Below, piece by piece: positions 9,750 through 57,922 of a DNA stretch of 64,000 nt. The DNA comes from SAR202 cluster bacterium. GTDB lineage: Bacteria; Chloroflexota; Dehalococcoidia; Lucifugimonadales; UBA6927. The notes below the pieces were generated by a model, which ran no database searches, had not been told where the DNA came from, and saw nothing but the letters and a program-made list of their open reading frames with translations. The stretch spans positions 3,987 to 67,986 of the forward strand of contig JAKUTX010000008.1 of NCBI GenBank assembly GCA_022447855.1, read 5' to 3'. The translations under genes and the position numbers were made by a program. Position 1 is the stretch's first letter. Each line of letters begins with the position of its first letter.

Positions 9750-10136
9750 ATGCAGACACTAAGTAAAACAGCATTTGCTGAATATATTACTGAAATTGCA
9801 TTAAGTGTATATGATTTCCACGAACGATTTAATCTTCCTGCAGTAGATTCTTCGAATAATGAAGAATTAGGTCTTAAAATCCTAAGAGATAGACTTGTAT
9901 TGTTGAATGAGGAAATTGGAGAACAAGCTTGGGAACTCAATCGCAGTAGATTTAATGAAGCTGTTGAGGAGTCAGCAGATGTTGCATTCATTGCTATAGG
10001 TACATTATGTAGTCTTGGAATATTGGCAAAATCCGCAGCAATTTCTGTTAAAAACAATAACGACTCAAAATCAAGTTCAACTCATCATATCGATTCAAGA
10101 TCAGGAAAGCTAATCAAAACCAAAAACCAATCATGA
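9750..10136 (+). CDS. MazG-like all-alpha NTP pyrophosphohydrolase family protein
   Basis: LLNEEIGEQAWEL...EAVEESADVAFIAIG is the EExxE...ExxD pattern of MazG-like enzymes. I prefer the ATG at 9750 because a GAGG lies 6 nt upstream. The stop overlaps the purD start (ATGA). Confidence 0.5.
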   Translation: MQTLSKTAFAEYITEIALSVYDFHERFNLPAVDSSNNEELGLKILRDRLVLLNEEIGEQAWELNRSRFNEAVEESADVAFIAIGTLCSLGILAKSAAISVKNNNDSKSSSTHHIDSRSGKLIKTKNQS

Positions 10137-11404
10137 AAATTCTCATTATAGGAAACGGAGCGCGCGAACATGCGATTGGATGGAACCTCTTCAATAGTCC
10201 ATCCAACCATGATATTTTCGTTGCCCCTGGAAATGCAGGCACCAATCAGTTTGCAAAAAATGTTGAAATAGATTCAAACAATATTCCTGAATTATTAGAT
10301 TTTGCAAAATCTCTTCCTGCAGATTTAACCATTGTAGGTCCAGAAATTCCTCTATCAAACGGAATCGTAGATGAATTTCAAAAATACGAATTACCAATTT
10401 TCGGACCATCAGCTAAAGCTTCTATGATTGAAAGTAGTAAATCTTATGCAAAAAGAATAATGACCTCCGCCGGTGTTCCTACCGCCAAATCACAAGTATT
10501 CACATCTCAATCAAAAATAACAGAATTCTTGACAAATTGTTCTGCTCCTGTAGTGATCAAAGCTGATGGCCTTGCCGCAGGCAAAGGGGTGATCATAGCG
10601 CAATCAAAAGAAGAAATTGATAATGCAATTACAGAAATGTTTGTAAATAGATCTTTTGGCGAAGCTTCAGACAAAGTACTCGTAGAAGAATTCCTAGAAG
10701 GAAATGAAATTAGTATTTTTGGGTTTGTTGATGGAGAAAAAGTTTCTTCATTAGTTCCAGCATGTGACTACAAAAAAATATTCGAAAACGATCTTGGACC
10801 TAATACTGGTGGAATGGGAGCTTATAGCCCCCCTCCAATTTGGTCTAAACAACTTGAAAATTCAATCAGAGAATCTATATTCTTACCTGTTGCTAAGGAA
10901 TTAGTAAATAATCAAAACCCTTACAAAGGGTTGCTTTATGCTGGATTGATGATCACTAAGAATGGTCCTATGGTTATTGAATTTAATTGTAGATTCGGAG
11001 ATCCTGAAGCACAAGTAATTCTACCCAGAATGAAGTCAGATCTTGCGAAATTATGCCTTGATATCGCTAACGGCAATCTCATCCAAAACCAACCTATAGA
11101 ATGGGATCCAGATCCAGCTGTGACTGTTGTAATAGCAAGTGGAGGTTATCCCGAAAATTATACAATTGGACATGAAATTTCTGGACTAAAAAAATCAACA
11201 AATCAAGTCATGGTCTTTCATGCAGGAACACAATTAAATCAAGATGGGAAAATTGTTACTTCTGGCGGAAGAGTCCTGTCGATTACGGCTAAAGGTTCAT
11301 CTTTTGAATCAGCAAGAAATTTAGCCTATACAGAAATTGAATCAATCAATTTCAAAAATGCCTATTACAGAACAGATATAGCCTCAAAAATATTAGAAGG
11401 TTGA
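10133..11404 (+). CDS. purD: phosphoribosylamine--glycine ligase
   Basis: 423 aa. MKILIIGNGAREHA start and ATP-grasp core (VIKADGLAAGKGV, EFNCRFGDPE). Confidence 0.95.
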   Translation: MKILIIGNGAREHAIGWNLFNSPSNHDIFVAPGNAGTNQFAKNVEIDSNNIPELLDFAKSLPADLTIVGPEIPLSNGIVDEFQKYELPIFGPSAKASMIESSKSYAKRIMTSAGVPTAKSQVFTSQSKITEFLTNCSAPVVIKADGLAAGKGVIIAQSKEEIDNAITEMFVNRSFGEASDKVLVEEFLEGNEISIFGFVDGEKVSSLVPACDYKKIFENDLGPNTGGMGAYSPPPIWSKQLENSIRESIFLPVAKELVNNQNPYKGLLYAGLMITKNGPMVIEFNCRFGDPEAQVILPRMKSDLAKLCLDIANGNLIQNQPIEWDPDPAVTVVIASGGYPENYTIGHEISGLKKSTNQVMVFHAGTQLNQDGKIVTSGGRVLSITAKGSSFESARNLAYTEIESINFKNAYYRTDIASKILEG

Positions 11405-17973: not shown

Positions 17974-19053
17974 TCAGACCAAACGTTTTAACACACTAAT
18001 CATCCGATCAGTTTGTGCAGGCGTACCAATTGCCGTCCGGAAACAGTTTCTTAATGATTCATTATTAAACGTACGCACAAAAATACCTTCGCTTTCCAAG
18101 CCACTTACAACAAAATCTTTTTTGTATTCTTTTACTTCACACAATATATAATTCCCACTTGAAGGGACAGGTTCCAAACCATCAATATCAACTAATAAGC
18201 TAAACAACCGATCTCTTTCATCTACTATACTTCGAACATTCTTTAGCAAAAACGCAGAATCATCAATAGAGGCAATCAATGCGTCTTCGGCAGTTACACT
18301 TAAATTGTATGGTGACTTTATATCCATTAAATGGTTGACCAAAATTGGGCTCATAATTCCATATCCCACTCTTAATCCTGCAAGCCCGGCCCATTTACTC
18401 ATAGTTCTAAGTATCACCAAATTATCAAACTCATCTATTAAATCCGCAAAGGTAAAATTGCAGAATTCATAATAGGCTTCATCCAAAACTACAAGAACAC
18501 CAGTATCAAGTAATGACCGTATTTCAAATTCCGAAGCCATATTTCCTGTAGGATTGTTTGGAGAAGCAACAAATATTATCTTTGTACGATCATTGATTGT
18601 TTTAAGAGCATCTTCAATATCAATTCCAAAACTGCTATCTCGCCTAGACAACTGAACTTCAGCTTGGTAAATCCTCGCACAAAATGCATACATCCCAAAT
18701 GTTGGTTCAAAATCCAAAATATTGTCTCCTGGTTCCACAAATAATCTGAACAACAAATCAATCAATTCATCACTTCCCGCTCCTGCGACCAAACAATCTT
18801 GGGGAAATCCAGTATATTCACTTAATTTATTACGAACTTTTCTTTGTAAAGGATCCGGGTAAACATGAACGGCAGAATTCGACACTACTTCAGAAACTTT
18901 CCCCGAAGGGCCATAAGGATTCTCATTACCATTTAATTTAATGATTTGATCAATTGGTATACCTGCTTTCTCCGCAAGCATTTCTGGAGGATCTACAGGA
19001 TCATATGAAGTGACATTACGCAAATGAGGTTTAATTAAATCTTCTATACTCAA
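17974..19053 (-). CDS. hisC: histidinol-phosphate aminotransferase
   Basis: 359 aa. LNGNENPYGPS, SPNNPTG and RTMSKWAGLAGLRVGY (PLP lysine) motifs. Confidence 0.9.
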   Translation of the reverse strand: MSIEDLIKPHLRNVTSYDPVDPPEMLAEKAGIPIDQIIKLNGNENPYGPSGKVSEVVSNSAVHVYPDPLQRKVRNKLSEYTGFPQDCLVAGAGSDELIDLLFRLFVEPGDNILDFEPTFGMYAFCARIYQAEVQLSRRDSSFGIDIEDALKTINDRTKIIFVASPNNPTGNMASEFEIRSLLDTGVLVVLDEAYYEFCNFTFADLIDEFDNLVILRTMSKWAGLAGLRVGYGIMSPILVNHLMDIKSPYNLSVTAEDALIASIDDSAFLLKNVRSIVDERDRLFSLLVDIDGLEPVPSSGNYILCEVKEYKKDFVVSGLESEGIFVRTFNNESLRNCFRTAIGTPAQTDRMISVLKRLV

Positions 19054-46551: not shown

Positions 46552-47310
46552 TTATTCAGTTGGCAATCCCTGCTCAACAAGAATCAAATGAACATCTCCA
46601 GGACCGTGAACTCCCTGAATCATGATATTCTCAATATCTCCAGATCTACTCGGACCGGAAATTAAATTCATATATCCATTTTTTGAACCAGAGACTATTT
46701 GATATCTTCGAATTGCAAAAAGTTCATCCAAAGATCTTACTACTTGACCTAGGAAAACAATGGCGACATGGACAGGAGGAGCCAGGGATACTAACCTACT
46801 AACCCCTGTTTTTGGAATTACTACAACTGTTCCAGTTTCAGCCACAGCAAAATCACATCCAGTGATTCCAACATCTGCAATTTTTGCCACCGAACGAAAA
46901 TATTGTTCTTTTTCATTTGGGTCTAAATTAATTTGGTCGTCGCTTTTCATCTTACAAATATCTATTCCTCTGCCAGACAAAAGACCATCCAATTGCATTA
47001 AATTAACTGCTTGTTCATTTGTACAAACTATTGATTTACACTCAATTTGGTTCAATATATTATTTAAAACTTCCCTGGCTCGACTCACATCTGAAACTTT
47101 ATAAGTATTCCACCCTTGATTTTGAGCATTTCCTTCAAATTCATTTATCAAGTTCACAGCATTTTCAATAGAATCAGTCATTGCATCACGATATCCAGGT
47201 TCCGGATTAGTAAAAAACTGTTCTTTTTTTACATCAAAATCTGAATCTGAGACACGTCCAAGGGCATTTTTTACTCTATCTAAAAATTTCGTCTTTAATT
47301 TTTGATCCAT
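46552..47310 (-). CDS. lutC: lactate utilization protein C (LUD domain)
   Basis: 252 aa. LUD-domain pattern (DVGITGCDFAVAETGTVVV...SGPSRSGDIE). Last gene of a lutA-lutB-lutC order. Confidence 0.8.
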   Translation of the reverse strand: MDQKLKTKFLDRVKNALGRVSDSDFDVKKEQFFTNPEPGYRDAMTDSIENAVNLINEFEGNAQNQGWNTYKVSDVSRAREVLNNILNQIECKSIVCTNEQAVNLMQLDGLLSGRGIDICKMKSDDQINLDPNEKEQYFRSVAKIADVGITGCDFAVAETGTVVVIPKTGVSRLVSLAPPVHVAIVFLGQVVRSLDELFAIRRYQIVSGSKNGYMNLISGPSRSGDIENIMIQGVHGPGDVHLILVEQGLPTE

Positions 47311-47318
47311 AATTATCC

Positions 47319-48743
47319 CTATCTATTTTTTAATTTCCAAAGTCTTCGGAAACTAACTTTTGCAGGAATGGGAAAAGTCCTATATTCTGTCCAGCCTGAT
47401 AAATAGCCCGGAAGTTTTTTCAATCTTCCATTCTTTGAAAAAGGCAACAATATAACCCTCAAAAATTTCACGGAAAATCCCATCAACAATGGATTGCCTG
47501 CAATCTTTGAAAATCCTTTCATAAATCCTCTTTCGAAAACCGAAGAACTTTGAGTATCCAAATCATTATCACCTTCAGAAAGTTTTCTTCTTAAATGTAA
47601 TAACATCCTGGGAATATTAATTTTTACTGGACAAGCCTCATGGCAAGCACCGCATAAACTAGATGCAAAAGGCAAATCCTTAGCTTGCTTTAAATCTGTC
47701 AAAACAGGGGACACAATTGCTCCAATTGGTCCTGGATATACCCATCCGTATGAGTGTCCTCCCACTTTTCTGTATACAGGACAAGCATTCATACATGCTC
47801 CGCATCTAACACATAGTAAAGCTTCTCGTAACTCTGGATCTGACAATAATTTTGAGCGTCCATTATCAACTAATACTAAATGGAATTCCTCCGGACCATC
47901 TTCATCATATGAGCTTCTTGGTCCATTAATTGTAGTTACGTAACTTGAAATCCATTGACCAGTCGCAGAACGTATTAGCAACCTCAACAATGTACTTAAT
48001 TCATTCATTGTAGGAACAATCTTCTCCATACCAGTTACAGCGACATGAATTTTAGGCATAGAAGTACACATCCTGCCATTGCCTTCATTGCTTACCAACG
48101 CTACAGTACCAGTTTCCGCAACTACAAAATTCGCCCCAGTAACACCCATATCAGCTTGAAAAAATTTTTCCCTCAATTGGGATCTCGCGACTCCAGCCAA
48201 TTCATTTACATCAGATGACTTAGCAGCCCCCAATTTCTCAGAAAACAAATCAGCCACATCACTCCGATCCTTATGCATCGCCGGTGCAATTATATGAAAT
48301 GGAGTTTCATCTGCAAGTTGAATAATATATTCACCCAAATCAGTCTCAATAGGCTCAACATTATTTTGCTCCAATTTGGAATTCAAAGACATCTCTTCCG
48401 ACAGCATACTTTTACTTTTTATAACAGTCTTTACATTCTTAGATTTCGCCAACTCCACCACATAATTTGCAGCCTCGTCAGCATCACTAGCCAAATAAAA
48501 ATTTCCACCATTAGCAACTACTGCTTGTTCCAAAATCTCAATATAAAAATCAAGATTCTCAACAGTATGTTCTCGAATAGATCTTCCGTGTTCTCTTAAA
48601 TCTTCCCAATTATGAGTAGCAGAACCAGCTGCTATTCTTCTAGAATGAAATCCTTCATACAAAGCATTCAAATTAGCCTGTATTTTGGAATCATTCAAAG
48701 TATCTAATGCAATATCTCGAAATTTTTCTGTTACTGGTTTCAT
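47319..48743 (-). CDS. lutB: lactate utilization iron-sulfur protein LutB
   Basis: 474 aa. LUD domain plus two 4Fe-4S motifs, CVRCGACMNACP and CGACHEACP. Confidence 0.9.
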   Translation of the reverse strand: MKPVTEKFRDIALDTLNDSKIQANLNALYEGFHSRRIAAGSATHNWEDLREHGRSIREHTVENLDFYIEILEQAVVANGGNFYLASDADEAANYVVELAKSKNVKTVIKSKSMLSEEMSLNSKLEQNNVEPIETDLGEYIIQLADETPFHIIAPAMHKDRSDVADLFSEKLGAAKSSDVNELAGVARSQLREKFFQADMGVTGANFVVAETGTVALVSNEGNGRMCTSMPKIHVAVTGMEKIVPTMNELSTLLRLLIRSATGQWISSYVTTINGPRSSYDEDGPEEFHLVLVDNGRSKLLSDPELREALLCVRCGACMNACPVYRKVGGHSYGWVYPGPIGAIVSPVLTDLKQAKDLPFASSLCGACHEACPVKINIPRMLLHLRRKLSEGDNDLDTQSSSVFERGFMKGFSKIAGNPLLMGFSVKFLRVILLPFSKNGRLKKLPGYLSGWTEYRTFPIPAKVSFRRLWKLKNR

Positions 48744-48782
48744 CGAATCTCCAACTACTTACAACTCATTTGTAGATTTATT

Positions 48783-49529
48783 TCAGCCTAACCTATCGTG
48801 CAAAATTTCCGCAAAATGCATTACTTTTATCTTATCTCCTGCTTTCTCAATCCCTCCGCGTATATGCATCAAACAACTAGAATCTACCGAAGTCAGGATC
48901 TCCGCTTTTGAATTTCGCAACGCATGGATCTTATCACTCAACATTGCACCAGAAATCTCAGGAAATTTTACTGAGAATGTCCCACCAAATCCGCAACAAA
49001 CATCTTCTTGATCAAAATTAACCAATTCAACGTTTGATAGAGACCCCAACAAAGTAAGAGGCTGATTTAAAATATTCAATTCACGCAACGCATGACAAGC
49101 CTGATGATATGCGATTTTCAAAACACCTGAAGGAGAATTAGGAGAAACAAATTGATTCAAATCATCAATTTTCAACACGTTAAAAATAAAATCACTCAAT
49201 TCAAAAATTCTTGGCGAAATTTGCTCCCATTCTCTTAAAGCCGCATCATCATCTTTTAAGATTTCAGCATAAAATTTGCTAACCATTGCGGCACATGAGC
49301 CTGAAGGCAAAACAATATATTCAGAATCACTAAAATCTTGAAGAAATTTTTTGGCTAATGGTTTTGAATCATTCCAATAACCCGAATTAAACATTGGTTG
49401 ACCACAGCATGCTTGACCCTTAGGAAAGTCAACTTCAATACCTAATCGATTCAAAATTCCAAATGTGGATTCACCAATTTTTGGATAAAATTGATCAACA
49501 ATGCAGGTAACAAATAGTGAAGCTTTCAA
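48783..49529 (-). CDS. lutA: (Fe-S)-binding CCG-domain protein LutA
   Basis: 248 aa. Two CCG-type Cys motifs (ACCGQP, VCCGFGG). Confidence 0.85.
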   Translation of the reverse strand: MKASLFVTCIVDQFYPKIGESTFGILNRLGIEVDFPKGQACCGQPMFNSGYWNDSKPLAKKFLQDFSDSEYIVLPSGSCAAMVSKFYAEILKDDDAALREWEQISPRIFELSDFIFNVLKIDDLNQFVSPNSPSGVLKIAYHQACHALRELNILNQPLTLLGSLSNVELVNFDQEDVCCGFGGTFSVKFPEISGAMLSDKIHALRNSKAEILTSVDSSCLMHIRGGIEKAGDKIKVMHFAEILHDRLG

Positions 49530-50814: not shown

Positions 50815-51852
50815 TTGACCACTCCAATTTCTAATCCTTCAGAAATACTAGAATTTAATGAATATATCGATGTGATAAATCACTTCATAGATAGTGGTTG
50901 GACTGATGGTTTACCAATTATACCTCCCACTCAAGAATTAGTTGATAATTTTATTAATATCTCTGGAAGATCTGCATCTGAAATCCTTGGATCTGAACCT
51001 ACTAGAGGTAGAATTATTACGGTGGAAAAAGCTGCCATAAATTCTGTAATGGCTGGATGTTTACCCGAATATTTCCCTGTAATTATCGCCGCGTGTGAAG
51101 CGATGTGTGAACCAAAATTCAATCTACATGGAATCACAGCAAGTACGATGGGTGCTGCACCTCTTATATTGGTAAATGGTCCGATTTCTAGTAAATTGAA
51201 AATCAATTCTGGTTTCGGGTTATTCGGACCTGGTCATAGGGCAAACGCTACAATAGGTAGAGCAATCCGTCTTATTATAATTAATGCTACAGGCGCCGTA
51301 CCCGGAATTCTAGACAAAGCCACACTCGGTCATGCGGGGAAATATACTTGGTGTATCTCTGAATCGGAAAGTATTAGTAATTGGGATCCTTTGCAAGTTG
51401 AAAGAGGATTCGACAAATCTCAAAGCACTGTTACTCTATTTGCTGGATTATCTCCGATTCAAATTCAAAACCACGAAAGTAATTCTCCCCAAGGCATTGT
51501 CCAATCTTTTAAAGATGCAATGTTTACTTCTGGTAGTGGTCAGGAAGAAATCATAGTAATCCTCCCAGGTCAACATATGGGTCATATTACAAAATCCAAT
51601 TGGTCTAAAACTAAATTGCAGCAATGCTTTTATGATTCAACAATCAAACAAAATGATATAGAATGGAACAAAGCTTACGCCATGAGGGATTATATACCGG
51701 ACCCAGAATCACCTAAATCCGTAACTAGGTCACCCGAGGGAATTACTATTGTCCCAGCGGGTGGAGAAGCTGGTGGGTTCGCGCAACTTATTCCGCTTTG
51801 GGGTGGCGGGTCAAGCTCACAATCAGTGACTAAAGAAATACTAATCAATTAG
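50815..51852 (+). CDS. conserved-looking hypothetical protein (partner of the selenoprotein gene)
   Basis: 345 aa. TTG start with GGAGGA 5 nt upstream. Distinctive blocks WTDGLPIIPPT, HGITASTMGAAP and GPGHRANATIGRAIRL. No family I can name. Confidence 0.6.
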   Translation: MTTPISNPSEILEFNEYIDVINHFIDSGWTDGLPIIPPTQELVDNFINISGRSASEILGSEPTRGRIITVEKAAINSVMAGCLPEYFPVIIAACEAMCEPKFNLHGITASTMGAAPLILVNGPISSKLKINSGFGLFGPGHRANATIGRAIRLIIINATGAVPGILDKATLGHAGKYTWCISESESISNWDPLQVERGFDKSQSTVTLFAGLSPIQIQNHESNSPQGIVQSFKDAMFTSGSGQEEIIVILPGQHMGHITKSNWSKTKLQQCFYDSTIKQNDIEWNKAYAMRDYIPDPESPKSVTRSPEGITIVPAGGEAGGFAQLIPLWGGGSSSQSVTKEILIN

Positions 51853-51861
51853 GAGCATTTA

Positions 51862-52392
51862 ATGACTACCAAAATTAAAGTATTGAATCCCACTGTAAAA
51901 CCAATTTCTGAAGCTGGATTCCTTGCAAAACGACCTTCAAACTTAAAAGGTAAAAATTTGGGTCTTTTAGCTAATGGGAAAGAAAATTCTGAAGAATTGC
52001 TAGCATCAATTTCTGAAGTACTCTCAGACCATTTCGAATTCGGATCAATTATTAAAAGAAATAAAGGAAATGCTTCCAGGCCTTGCCCTGATAATTTAGT
52101 AGAAGAAATGGCAGAAGAGTGTGATGTAATCATAACTTCTAATGGTGACTGAGGTTCCTGTTCTTCGTGCAGTGTGTACGACGCCGTCGCATTTGAAAAA
52201 CTCAATGTTCCAGCTGCAGTAATTTGCACCGAACCATTTATATCTAGTGGAAAAGCAATGCTAGAAATTGTAAATCTTCCCGAATATCCTATGGCAATTG
52301 TTCCTCATCCAATAGGAAGTTTAAGCAAATCTGAATTGCGGGAAATGGCTATGAAAATAGCTCCTGAAATCATACAAATTTTGACAGACTGA
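51862..52392 (+). CDS. putative selenoprotein with U-G-S-C motif (TGA at 52150-52152 read as selenocysteine)
   Basis: Track ORFs 51862..52152 and 52174..52392 are in one frame, separated by a single TGA. Read-through gives ...ECDVIITSNGD-U-GSCSSCSVYDAVAFEKL... (176 aa). AGGAG lies 6 nt before the ATG. A hairpin follows the TGA. Confidence 0.7.
52165..52181 (+). promoter_or_regulatory. candidate bacterial SECIS hairpin
   Basis: UCGUGC-AGUGU-GUACGA, a 6-bp stem with a 5-nt G/U-containing loop, starting 13 nt after the UGA. Confidence 0.4.
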
Positions 52393-52402
52393 CCTTCAAA
52401 AA

Positions 52403-52687
52403 TTAGTCTGTTGAAAACCTTTGAGATTCCGGAGGCGTAGCCCACAATTCTTCAGCGCCTTTCATAGCCACAGATCGTTCTGGACTTCCTTTCCATTTAT
52501 CATAAATCTCTTCATTTTCCCAAATTACTAATGAAGTAATTTGGTTCGGATCTGATAAAGAATATAATGTACGTCGATGAACAAAACCTGGAGCCTTGCT
52601 TTGAGCTTCTCCATTTCCCTTTAACAAAGTATCTGCTTTTAAAAAGCAATCATTTTTAGCCCAATGATGAGTCAAAACACCTATCAT
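52403..52687 (-). CDS. ABM (antibiotic biosynthesis monooxygenase)-like small protein
   Basis: 94 aa. Ferredoxin-like pattern with SLVIWENEEIYDKWKGSPER, typical of ABM/Dabb domains. Confidence 0.5.
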   Translation of the reverse strand: MIGVLTHHWAKNDCFLKADTLLKGNGEAQSKAPGFVHRRTLYSLSDPNQITSLVIWENEEIYDKWKGSPERSVAMKGAEELWATPPESQRFSTD

Positions 52688-52788: not shown

Positions 52789-53874
52789 ATGCCCACTCTA
52801 ACTGAACATGATATGCAACGAATTGCGTTTTCAATTCTTCACGCAGCAGGTGCACCAGAAGCACATGCAAAAACTGTAAGTGATCATTTGTCCTTGGCTA
52901 ATTTGTCAGGTCATGATTCACATGGATTTATAAGAATAATGCAGTATATACGTGATATTAAAAACGGAGGAGTTGTTCCCGATGCCAATCCTGAAACTGT
53001 CTTAGATTTCCAAGCGATTGCGCAATTAGACGGGAAAAAATCTTTTGGCCAAGTTGCAATGACTGCTGCAACAAAACTTGCAATTGAAAAAGCAAGAAAA
53101 TTTGGTATAGGAATGATCACAGTTAAAAACCTAGGCCATACTGGTCGCATAGGAACATATAATGAAATGATAGCCAGAGAAAACATGGTAGGACTAGTAT
53201 GTACTGGTTTTGCAGGAGCCAGTCAGGGAATCGTTTCCCCATTCGGAGGAAAGACAGGCAAACTAGGAACAAATCCAATTTCCTACACATTCCCTTCTGA
53301 TGAAGAAGGACCAATATTGCTAGATATGGCTACGAGTGTTGGAGCTGAAGGAAAACTTAGAGTATATAGAGCCAGAGGCCACGATCTTCCAGATAAATGG
53401 GTTTTAGACAGTGAAGGCAATCCTAGTGAAAATCCAAACGATTTTTACGAAGGAGGCGCAATTTTACCTGTCGGAGGTCTAGCAGGTGGCCATAAGGGAT
53501 TTGGGTTAGGTATGGTTGCTACCATATTGGGAGCAGTAATGGCAGAAACTGGTGATGACTCTGAAGGAACTGGAAGTATTTACGATGGTGGCGATGGTGG
53601 AATTAATGGATCGACCGTAATTGCAATCAATGCCGAAGCACTAGGACCAATCGATGAGACTAAGAAACGAATTAGCAACTTTGTGAAATTCTTAAAGGAT
53701 GTCGAACCAATGGATGGATCCGAAGGAGTCTTATATCCTGGTGAAGTAGAAATAAGAAACAGAGTTAACAAACGTGCATCAGGAGTCGAAATAGAAGACG
53801 CTACTTGGAATCAAGTTTGCGAACTAATTGATGAATATAATGTACGCGCAGAACTAGAACCTCTCCCAAATTAA
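52789..53874 (+). CDS. Ldh_2-family (malate/L-lactate/sulfolactate dehydrogenase type 2) oxidoreductase
   Basis: 361 aa. SGHDSHG, LGTNPIS and GGHKGFGLG motifs. Confidence 0.85.
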   Translation: MPTLTEHDMQRIAFSILHAAGAPEAHAKTVSDHLSLANLSGHDSHGFIRIMQYIRDIKNGGVVPDANPETVLDFQAIAQLDGKKSFGQVAMTAATKLAIEKARKFGIGMITVKNLGHTGRIGTYNEMIARENMVGLVCTGFAGASQGIVSPFGGKTGKLGTNPISYTFPSDEEGPILLDMATSVGAEGKLRVYRARGHDLPDKWVLDSEGNPSENPNDFYEGGAILPVGGLAGGHKGFGLGMVATILGAVMAETGDDSEGTGSIYDGGDGGINGSTVIAINAEALGPIDETKKRISNFVKFLKDVEPMDGSEGVLYPGEVEIRNRVNKRASGVEIEDATWNQVCELIDEYNVRAELEPLPN

Positions 53875-53896
53875 ATTCCCATAATTTTATAGTCGT

Positions 53897-53940
53897 ACAA
53901 AACACAACTCACTTTTTCAAGTGAGTTGTGTTTTGTTTAA
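53897..53940 (+). terminator. rho-independent terminator
   Basis: ACAAAACACAACTCAC-tttttcaa-GTGAGTTGTGTTTTGT, a perfect 16-bp stem followed by a T-rich tail, 22 nt after the stop. Confidence 0.8.
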
Positions 53941-54275
53941 AAAGATACACATCCGAATTTTTTAAGCATATATATCAAATAATTTAGTGTATGAACTTGA
54001 AAAACTATTACATAGATTCTTTTTAGAAGATTTAACTATCAAAACACGAAAGCAAAAATTCCTACATAAATTCCTATATGAGAAATATTGTGACGAAATA
54101 TGTTCATAAAATATAAATACTATACTAATAAATCCATTATTTTATATAAACCGAATTATTCATCCATAAATAATTTATAAATCTATACTAAATTTTTGCA
54201 AATGCATACACTTCATTGTAGAAAATGTGTATACTTCTAAAGGCCAAAACATTAACACTACAAAGAGAGGCAAAT

Positions 54276-55250
54276 GTGAAAACAGTTAGAAATATTTCAA
54301 ACCTTTTGAATCTGAACCCATTATTGGCAGTAGTTTTATTAATAGTCACAGTTCTAGCTATTATTACTTCTATCCCTGGGTGTTCTTCAGACTCGGAATC
54401 CGAAGAAACTAAAGTTAGTTCTGAAAATCCTATAACAGTCATTGACGCCCTAGGGCAAGAACTTTCATTTACTTCGGTTCCTGAAAAAATCGCTACAATA
54501 AGCCCTACTGCAACAGAAATGTTATACGCAGCTGGAGGAACATCAATTTTAAGAGATCGTGCTTCAAATTTCCCTTCTGAGGCTGCTTCACTACCAGACG
54601 TAGGTAGTGCATACAATCCATCAATAGAAACCATAATGAGTACTCAACCAGATTTAGTGATTATTGAGGCATTAACTCAAGCAAGGTTCGTGGGACCTTT
54701 AAGCCAGTCTGGACTCAAAGTATTAGCTGTAAAAGCTGAAACTAAGGAAGATATCATTAGTGGAATATCAAATCTGGGAACTATATTAAATACTGAAAAT
54801 ATAGCTAATAAGAAAACTGAAGATATTGTTGAAAGATTGGATGCCGCCAAAAGCGATGACGATAGAAGTGTTTTGATTCTTATTTCCGATCAGGACCAAA
54901 GTCTTTACGCTGCCCGTCCAGAATCTTATACTGGATTAATAGCTGAACTCGTGGGATTACATAACAAAGCTGAAGGGTTACCTGATTCAGGACCATTCCC
55001 CGGGTTTGCTCTAGTATCCCCCGAATTTATTTTAGGTGCTGATCCTGATATCATTTTGACAATTAGTCCTGCACCAGAGCCTGCTCCTAGATTGTCGGAC
55101 TCTATTAAACGTATACCTCCTTTTGCGAGATTGACTGCAATTCAACAGAATAATGTATTCGAAGCAGACGTGACCTTATTTCTACAATCCCCTGGACCAC
55201 GAATCGTTGATGCAGTAGAATTTTTAGATCAGAAGGTGAATTCTAACTAA
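54276..55250 (+). CDS. iron-chelate/cobalamin-type ABC transporter substrate-binding lipoprotein
   Basis: Signal peptide with lipobox IPGC. Periplasmic-binding-protein type 2 pattern (PEKIATISPTATEMLYAAG...PDLVI). GTG at 54276 preferred (AGAGAGG upstream). Confidence 0.8.
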   Translation: MKTVRNISNLLNLNPLLAVVLLIVTVLAIITSIPGCSSDSESEETKVSSENPITVIDALGQELSFTSVPEKIATISPTATEMLYAAGGTSILRDRASNFPSEAASLPDVGSAYNPSIETIMSTQPDLVIIEALTQARFVGPLSQSGLKVLAVKAETKEDIISGISNLGTILNTENIANKKTEDIVERLDAAKSDDDRSVLILISDQDQSLYAARPESYTGLIAELVGLHNKAEGLPDSGPFPGFALVSPEFILGADPDIILTISPAPEPAPRLSDSIKRIPPFARLTAIQQNNVFEADVTLFLQSPGPRIVDAVEFLDQKVNSN

Positions 55251-55256
55251 CAATTT

Positions 55257-56228
55257 ATGCAAATATCAGTCCAATATTTTATCTTAGGGTTAATTATTTT
55301 TGGTTTGGTTCTAGTAGGGATTTTTACAGGACCATCAGATTTTTCAATAAAAGAAATGTTTGATGGGTTACTAAGAAAAAATGATCACATCTCTCAAGTT
55401 ATTATATGGGATATGAGAATTCCCCGAATATTAGCAAGCATAATAGTTGGTAATTGTTTAGGACTTGCTGGAGTGTTGATACAGTTATCTACCAGAAGTT
55501 CTCTAGGAGACCCCAATCTATTTGGAATAGGTGGAGGTGCCGCAATATTCATTGCCGCTGGATTTGGAGGATTATTTGTAATTAGTAGTTTCTTTTCTCT
55601 AATTGGTTGCATTATTTCATCAACATTAGTTGCACTAGGACTATCAATGTTAATTTCAACTCCTAACCTTTCTGCCACAAAACTTGCATTAATGGGTATA
55701 GCTGTTGCCGCTCTTACAATTTCAATTGGAACAGCAATAATTTCTCACGGGAGAGTTTTTCCTTCTCAGATCATTGGGTTAGTTTCAGGATCCTTCAGCT
55801 CTAGCAACTGGGAAAATGTTTTTTATCTTTTAATTATTTTTTGCATATGTTTCGCAATCTCAATATGTCTGGCAAGAAAATTTTTTGCAATAATGCTAGG
55901 CGATATTCTCACAAAATCCTTAGGAGTGAATCCTATAAAAATCAGATTGTTCGCCATGACAATTGTAGGAGTCCTTTCCGGAGTCTCAGTTTTTTCAGGA
56001 GGCATAATTGGATTTGTAGGATTAGTTTCGCCTCATATTTCTAGAAGGTTATTTGGGAATTCAACGATAAACTTAATAATAAGTTCCTCAATAATTGGAG
56101 GATTAATCACATTATTTGCTGATCAATTAGCGCGTCTATTATTCGCCCCTTCAGAACTTCCAGTAGGTCTAGCAACAACAATTTTAGGTGCCCCAACAAT
56201 GATGTATCTAGCTTTAAAAGTAAAATGA
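55257..56228 (+). CDS. FecCD-family ABC transporter permease
   Basis: 323 aa, polytopic. RIPRILASIIVG, LGDPNLFGIGGGA and GFVGLVSPHISR motifs. Confidence 0.9.
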   Translation: MQISVQYFILGLIIFGLVLVGIFTGPSDFSIKEMFDGLLRKNDHISQVIIWDMRIPRILASIIVGNCLGLAGVLIQLSTRSSLGDPNLFGIGGGAAIFIAAGFGGLFVISSFFSLIGCIISSTLVALGLSMLISTPNLSATKLALMGIAVAALTISIGTAIISHGRVFPSQIIGLVSGSFSSSNWENVFYLLIIFCICFAISICLARKFFAIMLGDILTKSLGVNPIKIRLFAMTIVGVLSGVSVFSGGIIGFVGLVSPHISRRLFGNSTINLIISSSIIGGLITLFADQLARLLFAPSELPVGLATTILGAPTMMYLALKVK

Positions 56229-56833
56229 CGATAACAATTAAAAATTTAACCGTTGAATTAGAAGATATAAAAATATTACATAATATTTCAATTCAAATAC
56301 CCATCAAGTCATTTACCTGTATTTTGGGTGAAAATGGGGCTGGAAAATCAACTTTATTACGTGTAATTGCTAATGACATTTCTGACTATTCTGGATTCAT
56401 ATCAAGAATCAAGGAAACAGATTTAGTATACCTCCCTCAAAACATAGAATCTCCTCCATTTTTAACTGCATCCGAGATAGTTTCTTTAGGTTTCTACAAT
56501 TCCAAATTCACAAAGCAAAAAGTTACTCATCTTTCAAACGAATTAATTGAAACATGTGGAATCTCAAAGATAAAAAATCAACTTTTTGAAAATATCTCAT
56601 CAGGAGAAAAACAACGAGTATGGATCGCATTTGCACTTGCACAATCTAAAGATTTCATATTAATGGATGAACCACTTTCATCCGTAGATACTGATTCAAG
56701 AAAAGGTTTCTACGAATTACTCAAAGGGATCGTAGAGTCAGGGAAAACCATAATCCTTGTAAGTCATCACATTGAAGATGTGACTATATACGCAGACAAT
56801 ATAATCAGACTTGAAAAAGGATGCGTTGTCTGA
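56225..56833 (+). CDS. ABC transporter ATP-binding protein (compact)
   Basis: 202 aa. Walker A GENGAGKST, signature SSGEKQR, Walker B ILMDEP, H-loop VSHH. The start overlaps the permease stop (ATGA). Confidence 0.9.
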   Translation: MTITIKNLTVELEDIKILHNISIQIPIKSFTCILGENGAGKSTLLRVIANDISDYSGFISRIKETDLVYLPQNIESPPFLTASEIVSLGFYNSKFTKQKVTHLSNELIETCGISKIKNQLFENISSGEKQRVWIAFALAQSKDFILMDEPLSSVDTDSRKGFYELLKGIVESGKTIILVSHHIEDVTIYADNIIRLEKGCVV

Positions 56834-56896
56834 AATTTTGCCTCAACGTATATATTAAAATAAAATAATGAAAAATTTTGAAAGTGATATAGTTTT

Positions 56897-57922
56897 TTGA
56901 GTAACCCAAAAGTTGGATTTTTACTAATGAATATTGGAACTCCTACGGAGCCAACAATTTCAGGATTAAGAACCTACCTAAAAGAGTTTTTATCTGACCC
57001 AGATGTTATTGATGTACATCCAATTTTACGATGGTTAATTGTAAATTTACTCGTTGTACCATTTAGACCACATAGGATACTACATCAATATCAGAGTGTA
57101 TGGATGAAAGAGGGATCACCTTTAATGGTAAACTCCAAAAATTTCGTAGAGAAAATTTCTTCAAAAAACCCTGAATTTAAATTTGAAATTGGAATGCGCT
57201 ATGGGAAACCCTCGATAAAAGATGCGTTAATAAATCTTCAAAATTCTAAAGTGGAAAAGGTAGTTTTAATTCCTATGTTTCCACAATTTGCACAAGCCAC
57301 ATCAGGATCATGTGTGAAAAAGGCAATTGAGTTAATGCATGAGCTGAAAATCAATACTCCCTATGAAATAAAAAAACCATTCTATAATGAAGAATGGTTT
57401 ACTGAGTGTATAGCAAATTCTATTGAAGAATCAGAAGCATACAGAGACTCTGATCTTCTGCTATTTAGTTTTCACGGTTTGCCAGAAAGACAGATCAAAA
57501 AAATGGATCCTTCGAATCAATATTGCTTAAACAATATTGATTGCTGTGAAAGTAATTCCCCATTTAATGAAATGTGTTACAAATTCCATTGCCATACAAC
57601 CGTAAAAAAAGTTGTAAATAAACTAAAAACTAAGAAACCTTATCAGATAGGATTTCAAAGCAGATTTGGTCTTGATGCATGGATTAAACCCAACACAACA
57701 GATGTGATTGAGTCGTTACCAAAAGAAGGAATCAAAAAAATATCAGTCGTTTGCCCGGCATTTGTATTTGATTGTCTCGAAACTTTAGAAGAAATTGCTA
57801 TAAGAAATAATGAATATTTTGTTGAGGCAGGAGGTCAGTCTCTTAAAATGATTCCAGCATTAAATGATAACGATACTTGGGTTAATAAATTTTATGGATC
57901 AATTAAAAATAAATTTAATTGA
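56897..57922 (+). CDS. hemH: ferrochelatase
   Basis: 341 aa. VGFLLMNIGTP, PMFPQFAQATSGS and FSFHGLPE motifs. Contains a Cys-rich insert, CLNNIDCCESNSPFNEMCYKFHCH. TTG start at 56897 (alternative ATG at 56927). Confidence 0.9.
   Translation: MSNPKVGFLLMNIGTPTEPTISGLRTYLKEFLSDPDVIDVHPILRWLIVNLLVVPFRPHRILHQYQSVWMKEGSPLMVNSKNFVEKISSKNPEFKFEIGMRYGKPSIKDALINLQNSKVEKVVLIPMFPQFAQATSGSCVKKAIELMHELKINTPYEIKKPFYNEEWFTECIANSIEESEAYRDSDLLLFSFHGLPERQIKKMDPSNQYCLNNIDCCESNSPFNEMCYKFHCHTTVKKVVNKLKTKKPYQIGFQSRFGLDAWIKPNTTDVIESLPKEGIKKISVVCPAFVFDCLETLEEIAIRNNEYFVEAGGQSLKMIPALNDNDTWVNKFYGSIKNKFN

Follow-up and report, generated by a model that had tools for sequence, protein, structure and literature searches.

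Does the TGA at 52150–52152 end a gene, or is it translated? Within the 64-kb stretch of SAR202 DNA analysed here (the window), gene callers place one open reading frame (ORF) at 51862–52152 and another at 52174–52392, both on the forward strand. An earlier note, made from the letters of the sequence, had proposed that the two belong to a single gene in which the TGA encodes selenocysteine (Sec) at the first position of a U-x-x-C motif. The comparisons reported below make it very probable that 51862–52392 is indeed one gene, which encodes a UGSC-family selenoprotein of marine SAR202 (Chloroflexota) and which gene callers have split at the UGA.

A single reading frame continues across the UGA

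The two ORFs lie in one frame, and only the TGA at 52150–52152 and seven sense codons (GGT TCC TGT TCT TCG TGC AGT) separate the first from the GTG at 52174. The earlier note had described this arrangement, and coordinates and translation agree with it. Read-through yields a product of 176 codons, ...ITSNGD-U-GSCSSCSVYDAVAFEKLNVP..., in which the UGA is codon 97 (Sec97) and which terminates at the TGA at 52390–52392; the peptide across the Sec position is SNGD-U-GSCSSCSVYDAVAFEK. The codons for U-G-S-C-S-S-C (52150–52170, forward strand) spell a UxxCxxC redox motif that is conserved across Sec and Cys forms of the protein. As read directly from the sequence, a Shine–Dalgarno motif, AGGAG (51851–51855, forward strand), lies 6 nt upstream of the ATG of the complete gene and overlaps the TAG stop (51850–51852) of the preceding gene, which encodes the partner protein described below. 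We infer that the two genes are co-transcribed and translationally coupled.

With U replaced by C, the product scored 135.1 bits against the NCBIfam model NF041046, 'UGSC family (seleno)protein' (curated cut-off 125), and 169.4 bits against Pfam PF24696 (cut-off 25), passing both curated cut-offs. The earlier note had named this NCBIfam entry; it exists under that name. The Pfam match covers residues 7–175 and flanks the UGA on both sides.

Alternatively, the TGA could be a true stop, and two small proteins (96 aa, and 72 aa from the GTG at 52174) could assemble a split UGSC domain. Each ORF piece matches PF24696 by itself, and gene callers and GenBank both give two ORFs. MCH2307695.1 (locus tag MK359_05295), which is annotated as a 'hypothetical protein' of a SAR202 cluster bacterium and is found on 154 contigs, matches the N-terminal 96 aa exactly, and C-terminal pieces of 72–74 aa are deposited as well, so that public records hold the UGSC gene in two parts. 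Two separate proteins would, however, leave the GSCSSCS codons untranslated, although these encode the most conserved part of the family. No Shine–Dalgarno motif was found in the sequence upstream of the GTG at 52174, Cys-form homologues are continuous and the hairpin described below is conserved in TGA-containing genes only. We regard a split domain made of two proteins as extremely unlikely, and retain a single gene that is read through the UGA.

Homologues are conserved on both sides of the UGA

Among 5.8 billion proteins searched, about 100 clusters of 96–98 aa end at the TGA position, and full-length forms of 176–293 aa were also retrieved. Full-length homologues from Actinobacteria have an uninterrupted frame and read GD-C-GSC; the UGA of the window gene aligns with their invariant Cys. 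A degenerate DNA pattern for GD-TGA-GSC-S-S-C-S-V retrieved at least 120 metagenomic stretches with the TGA form, from marine, soil and freshwater samples. The pattern used to scan genome contigs contained a Cys codon and yielded Cys-form Actinobacteria only.

Among the matches listed, the TGA is kept in 111 distinct metagenomic sequences. All complete cases continue for 79–87 further open codons after the TGA, and these encode conserved sequence: averaged over 98 distinct relatives, the C-terminal half, after the TGA, is 46% identical to the window protein, and the N-terminal half, before it, 40%. The earlier note had suggested looking in homologues for Cys or TGA at this position and for conservation beyond it, and both were found.

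In diverse Sec and Cys forms, G95, D96, U/C97, G98 and C100 are invariant, S99 is nearly so and C103 is conserved in at least 90%. A group of short Cys forms from Actinobacteria (L011–L090) reads GDCGSCSASAVAD; these proteins have neither the third Cys nor the SVHD peptide, whose codons form the hairpin in Sec forms, and their gene order is reversed, with UGSC preceding the partner. Since the Cys103 codon lies inside the hairpin stem and the short Cys forms (SASA) have lost this residue, a constraint on the RNA may partly account for the conservation of Cys103 in Sec forms. In a 556-aa fusion of UGSC and partner (P0384), GH-C-GASS replaces GD-U/C-GSC; the resolving Cys is lost, which points to continued function with a single Cys.

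A coding hairpin follows the UGA

The earlier note had also placed a hairpin, UCGUGC/AGUGU/GUACGA, at 52165–52181, where a bacterial SECIS element would be expected. The hairpin is present on the forward strand, and ViennaRNA added a closing A-U pair, which gives a stem of 7 bp (52165–52171/52175–52181) and a GUG loop (52172–52174). It starts 12 nt after the UGA, spans +16 to +32 counted from the U of the UGA, and encodes Ser-Cys, Ser-Val and Tyr/His-Asp. Bacterial SECIS elements are hairpins located shortly after the UGA, with G and U expected in the loop; the bSECISearch model, which Zhang and Gladyshev are said to have put forward in 2005, reportedly describes their consensus. Rfam gave no match to the hairpin, and an E-value scan of 52100–52300 returned noise only. 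On the window sequence alone, the fold energy is no better than that of shuffles (z = 0.57), so the significance of the hairpin lies solely in comparison across homologues.

For this comparison, we used the 111 distinct TGA-form sequences among the matches listed, whose flanking composition varies widely. Codons 5–9 after the UGA are nearly frozen: AGU occurs in 111/111 sequences, UGC and GUG in 109/111 each, and the Ser codon of the hairpin is UCG in 95/111 and never AGY. At the two serines that immediately precede the hairpin, TCN and AGY are both freely used. Wobble entropy falls from about 1.8 bits to 0–0.6 bit exactly across the hairpin. Paired cells make up 98.6% in the 111 sequences, compared with 0.8–72% in slid registers that served as controls.

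Pair 18–30 is GC in 99 sequences, GU in seven, AU in three and CG in two, and pair 21–27 is CG in 109 and UA in two. Compensatory double changes are present at these two wobble–wobble pairs, from G-C to A-U (3) or C-G (2) and from C-G to U-A (2); the events are few, amounting to 7 cells at 2 pairs. The covariation score, a check put forward in the earlier note, is 0.079 against a shuffled mean of 0.055 and was reached by none of 500 shuffles. The alternation between Tyr and His corresponds to a G-U/G-C switch in the stem, and the sole systematic break, found in 11 variants with Thr (ACG), affects the outermost pair.

Cys-form genes encoding the same peptide, CSSCSV, provided a control in the shape of the NifU-fused Cys forms (n = 3 independent sequences). 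These have TCG or TCC at the fourth serine, and 3–4 of the 7 pairs form. The 80 best Cys-form loci could not be used in this way because they read CSASAVAD. As judged from the aligned sequences, the hairpin doubles as coding sequence and is conserved in both sequence and structure in TGA forms.

Like SECIS elements of the E. coli fdhF type, this is a small intragenic hairpin that starts 11–12 nt after the UGA and has G/U in its apical loop, about 19 nt after the UGA. Unlike them, it lacks a bulged U and has a stem of only 6–7 bp. Tied as it is to the conserved peptide S-C-S-V-H-D, its sequence is specific to the family and hardly varies.

These data also bear on whether the TGA is a lesion, that is, a Cys codon (TGC or TGT) that has mutated in a pseudogene or been misread in an assembly. 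A single base separates TGC from TGA, and errors do occur in MAG assemblies. Yet the identical 96-aa product is found on 154 contigs from many samples, and the TGA recurs in 111 distinct relatives with the downstream frame intact and conserved. Across these relatives, the freezing of synonymous sites in the hairpin shows that genes with the TGA are under selection in that form. A pseudogene or an assembly error is extraordinarily improbable, and an intact gene with a functional UGA is the reading that we carry forward.

Probable decoding of the UGA as selenocysteine

TGA ends 12 of the 52 window ORFs of at least 150 aa, so the genetic code is standard. Two of these, at 10133–11404 and 17974–19053, are the genes that the earlier note had cited as evidence that TGA serves as a normal stop in the rest of the window and that the code is not reassigned. 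The window was scanned for other TGA-interrupted genes, and none was convincing. The UGSC gene itself stops at a TGA, 240 nt downstream of the Sec-UGA and with no hairpin element attached. One mRNA would accordingly contain two UGAs of opposite meaning, with the hairpin as the sole distinction between them. On the model of established bacterial Sec decoding, insertion at 52150–52152 would be SelB-dependent: the hairpin at 52165–52181 would recruit SelB with Sec-tRNA(Sec), and the UGA at 52390–52392, without such an element, would terminate translation.

A search of the 64-kb window found no tRNA-Sec and, among ORFs of fitting size, no selA, selB or selD, and none of these four lies in the roughly 10 kb past the left edge of the window on the source contig. 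Window ORFs of the size of SelA, SelB and SelD proved to be housekeeping genes instead. tRNA-Sec genes (anticodon TCA) are found close to UGSC in relatives. In two loci (L007, 12403–12500; L008, 6784–6881) the distance is 3.9 kb; their UGSC protein is 65% identical to that of the window, and they share the same arrangement of partner, UGSC and an ABM-domain gene. In a locus of another lineage (L187, 11721–11818), the distance is 2.2 kb. All three tRNA-Sec genes are on the reverse strand, and that of L007 scored 62.2 bits against Rfam RF01852 (gathering score 47). Their neighbourhoods include a NifS-type cysteine desulfurase gene, complete in L007 (13283–14476; TIGR03402, 536.6 bits) and represented by an Aminotran_5 fragment in L187, where a thioredoxin gene also flanks tRNA-Sec. 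These surroundings may constitute a small selenium-handling cluster.

The UGA could instead be read as a standard amino acid, either Trp or Gly by reassignment, or Cys through near-cognate or Sec-machinery misincorporation. The codon is given as Trp (GDWGSCSSCS) in the public records of two 176-aa proteins (P0001 and P0207), which is apparently a translation-table artefact, and Sec machinery was not found in the window. Against such a reading, TGA terminates the 12 well-supported window genes mentioned above, the UGSC gene itself included, tRNA-Sec adjoins UGSC in relatives, and the conserved hairpin has a SECIS-like position and a G/U-containing loop. Decoding as a standard amino acid is very unlikely, and we treat residue 97 as Sec in what follows.

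Fold and possible relation to selenoprotein B

The structure of the family was assessed by modelling P0001, a protein with 51% identity to that of the window and with W at the Sec position, in AlphaFold (pLDDT 89.7, pTM 0.84). The model is a five-stranded, doubly wound beta-alpha-beta domain of the alpha/beta class, in which the Sec position lies between a strand (89–93) and a helix (101–113). This agrees with the strand-to-helix junction that had been predicted for the U-x-x-C motif from the sequence of the window. Foldseek returned weak matches in the PDB (TM 0.45–0.55), namely flavodoxin 5veg, lumazine synthase, LarB/PurE and PTS-IIB, with no thioredoxin fold among them. In terms of this model, the UGSC fold is flavodoxin-like and not thioredoxin-like; the AF2 model of P0001 does not bear out the 'likely Trx-like fold' that had been put forward in 2008 (PMC2398784). 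The UGSC protein would thus be a small flavodoxin-like alpha/beta domain that bears U-G-S-C-S-S-C at the junction of strand 3 and helix 3.

Profile searches with 31 diverse family members gave matches to GrdB for 15 of them (best E = 7e-6), to PrdB for 10, to GrdF for nine, to a generic selenoprotein B model for eight and to GrdH for four; no unrelated family recurred among the profile matches of these members. The matches of the window protein lie in the Sec-bearing C-terminal region of the models (GrdB positions 331–412 of 431). Its scores of 16.9 bits against TIGR01917 (cut-off 602) and 12.7 bits against TIGR04483 (cut-off 300) are both below threshold, and PF07355 gave no match. Scores so far under the family cut-offs exclude UGSC from selenoprotein B; a distant relationship to the selenoprotein B Sec domain, here as a protein that stands alone, is plausible.

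Several features are shared between the two. A UxxCxxC motif has been described for GrdB, GrdF and GrdH (PMC6778437, PMC13188914), and UGSC has one after Sec at 52150–52170. The similarity to selenoprotein B (GrdB/GrdF/GrdH, PrdB; PF07355, TIGR01917, TIGR01918, TIGR04483) is weak, recurrent and restricted to the Sec-bearing C-terminal region. Like selenoprotein B, UGSC is always paired with a second protein. Thioredoxin-system genes, which grd operons contain, are also present in the UGSC operons of some lineages.

Other features set UGSC apart. At about 176 aa, it is shorter than PrdB (about 240 aa) and GrdB (about 430 aa), and the protein that accompanies it is no relative of the pyruvoyl proproteins GrdE and PrdA. 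No grdA-, grdC- or grdD-like genes were present among the annotated window ORFs or the recurrent neighbour families. The hosts also differ: UGSC occurs in SAR202 and Actinobacteria, whereas selenoprotein B reductases have been characterised in anaerobic clostridia. The clostridia with these reductases live anaerobically, while SAR202 and soil Actinobacteria are generally regarded as aerobic.

An orphan partner protein accompanies UGSC

The gene at 50815–51852, on the forward strand immediately upstream of UGSC, encodes a 345-aa orphan protein. Among 39 members of its family, no Pfam or NCBIfam match was obtained, not even a weak and recurrent one. The protein had no sequence match in the PDB, and its confident model (pLDDT 82) had no fold match there (best E = 0.74). 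A pyruvoyl proenzyme like GrdE or PrdA was considered and rejected, as the partner is similar to neither. The family comprises 6,645 clusters at 50% identity, with C82, H105, C180 and E183 invariant and a GWTDGLPxxPPT motif. Within the family (P0327–P0476), some proteins are tandemly duplicated, at about 715 aa, and others are fused to AhpC/TSA-Redoxin domains.

In 52 of the 59 Sec-form loci with enough flanking sequence, the partner gene immediately precedes UGSC on the same strand, and in 77 of 78 Cys-form actinobacterial loci it immediately follows UGSC. Actinomycetes with the Cys-form pair include Nonomuraea sediminis and Arthrobacter sp. ERGS1:01. In-frame fusions of the two proteins occur in both orders (L116, L117, L180 and P0384), and some such fusions have been cut at the TGA by gene callers (P0335, P0348, P0357 and P0352). 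In P0365 and P0391, an AhpC/TSA-Redoxin domain (CxxC or CxxT) is fused to the partner in place of UGSC. Because it is fused to either UGSC or an AhpC/TSA-Redoxin domain, the partner would be expected to work with a thiol/selenol redox domain. Adjacency and fusion argue strongly for a functional link between partner and UGSC.

Genomic surroundings

Convergent to UGSC, on the reverse strand, is a gene for an ABM-domain protein (antibiotic biosynthesis monooxygenase-like; PF03992) at 52403–52687. It is kept beside UGSC in relatives at 92% and 65% UGSC identity, and is listed for 3 of 120 distant Sec loci. The window is otherwise ordinary around the UGSC module, with a LutABC-type lactate-utilisation operon upstream (46552–49529, reverse strand) and genes for an Ldh_2 dehydrogenase, a Peripla_BP_2/FecCD/ABC transporter and ferrochelatase downstream (52789–57922, forward strand); only the ABM gene is retained near UGSC in the relatives of 65% identity.

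Clustering of the neighbours of UGSC loci gave no universal third gene, and the first cluster was rejected as a high-GC shadow-ORF artefact. An Amidohydro_2 gene neighbours UGSC in 50 of 84 Cys loci, and one Sec lineage has NuoF-like (12 loci) and NuoE-like (11 loci) neighbours. The NifU-fused Cys forms (L211–L214) are encoded in operons of thioredoxin reductase, thioredoxin, partner and UGSC::NifU. Thioredoxin/thioredoxin reductase and NuoEF neighbours are limited to some lineages, and the window locus is without them. A gene of the ComA (phosphosulfolactate synthase) family lies near the operons of L211–L214, and the second-best NCBIfam match of the Ldh_2 enzyme in the window is L-sulfolactate dehydrogenase, below the cut-off. 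Together, these two observations may hint at organosulfur metabolism.

Proposed function and significance

Sec97 and Cys100, possibly joined by Cys103, would form a redox-active selenenylsulfide centre at the C-terminal edge of the sheet. With less certainty, we infer that this centre acts on or with the 345-aa partner encoded immediately upstream, and that in other lineages thioredoxin or an NADH-linked NuoEF-like module returns it to the reduced state.

A broader reading is that UGSC and its partner make up a widespread, unrecognised two-component reductase. It would depend on Sec or Cys, act on a small-molecule substrate, receive its electrons from thioredoxin or a NuoEF-like module, and be kin of the Stickland-type 'protein B', either derived from or ancestral to that of glycine/proline reductase. 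On this reading, the reductase would operate in marine SAR202 and in soil Actinobacteria, and the partner family would represent a new catalytic fold. Taken as a whole, we offer it as a tentative proposal, possible and rather doubtful.

The family itself has a history. A UGSC-containing selenoprotein was noted in 2007 (Zhang & Gladyshev; PMC1976440), and in 2008 UGSC was described as a major selenoprotein family of the GOS data, with 255 Sec versus 21 Cys sequences and a fusion to 'Unknown_1' (Zhang & Gladyshev; PMC2398784). That fusion is probably the partner fusion found here. Reviews from 2022 and 2026 still list UGSC as uncharacterised (PMC9312934, PMC13188914). The window protein resembles the described family in motif, length and marine Sec form, and differs from it in nothing essential. 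As UGSC has been in the literature since 2007–2008 and is covered by curated HMMs, the identification made here is correct and already known. What the analysis adds is incremental: a fold of flavodoxin type, a motif and a sequence similarity that recall selenoprotein B, a hairpin with a dual coding role, and the finding that the partner family is both broad and an orphan.

For this genome, the result is chiefly a corrected annotation: as usually happens to selenoprotein genes, the UGSC gene is entered in GenBank as a pair of 'hypothetical proteins'. The result also assigns to SAR202 a selenoprotein family that ranks among the most abundant in the ocean. The observations made alongside it may be of greater use. 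For UGSC, a family without an assigned function since 2007, a selenol/thiol-dependent reductase module is a testable hypothesis, which draws on the obligate and in some cases fused partner, the replacement of UGSC by an AhpC/TSA domain with CxxC in some partner fusions, the thioredoxin-system and NuoEF-like neighbours, and a resemblance to selenoprotein B at the level of UxxCxxC.
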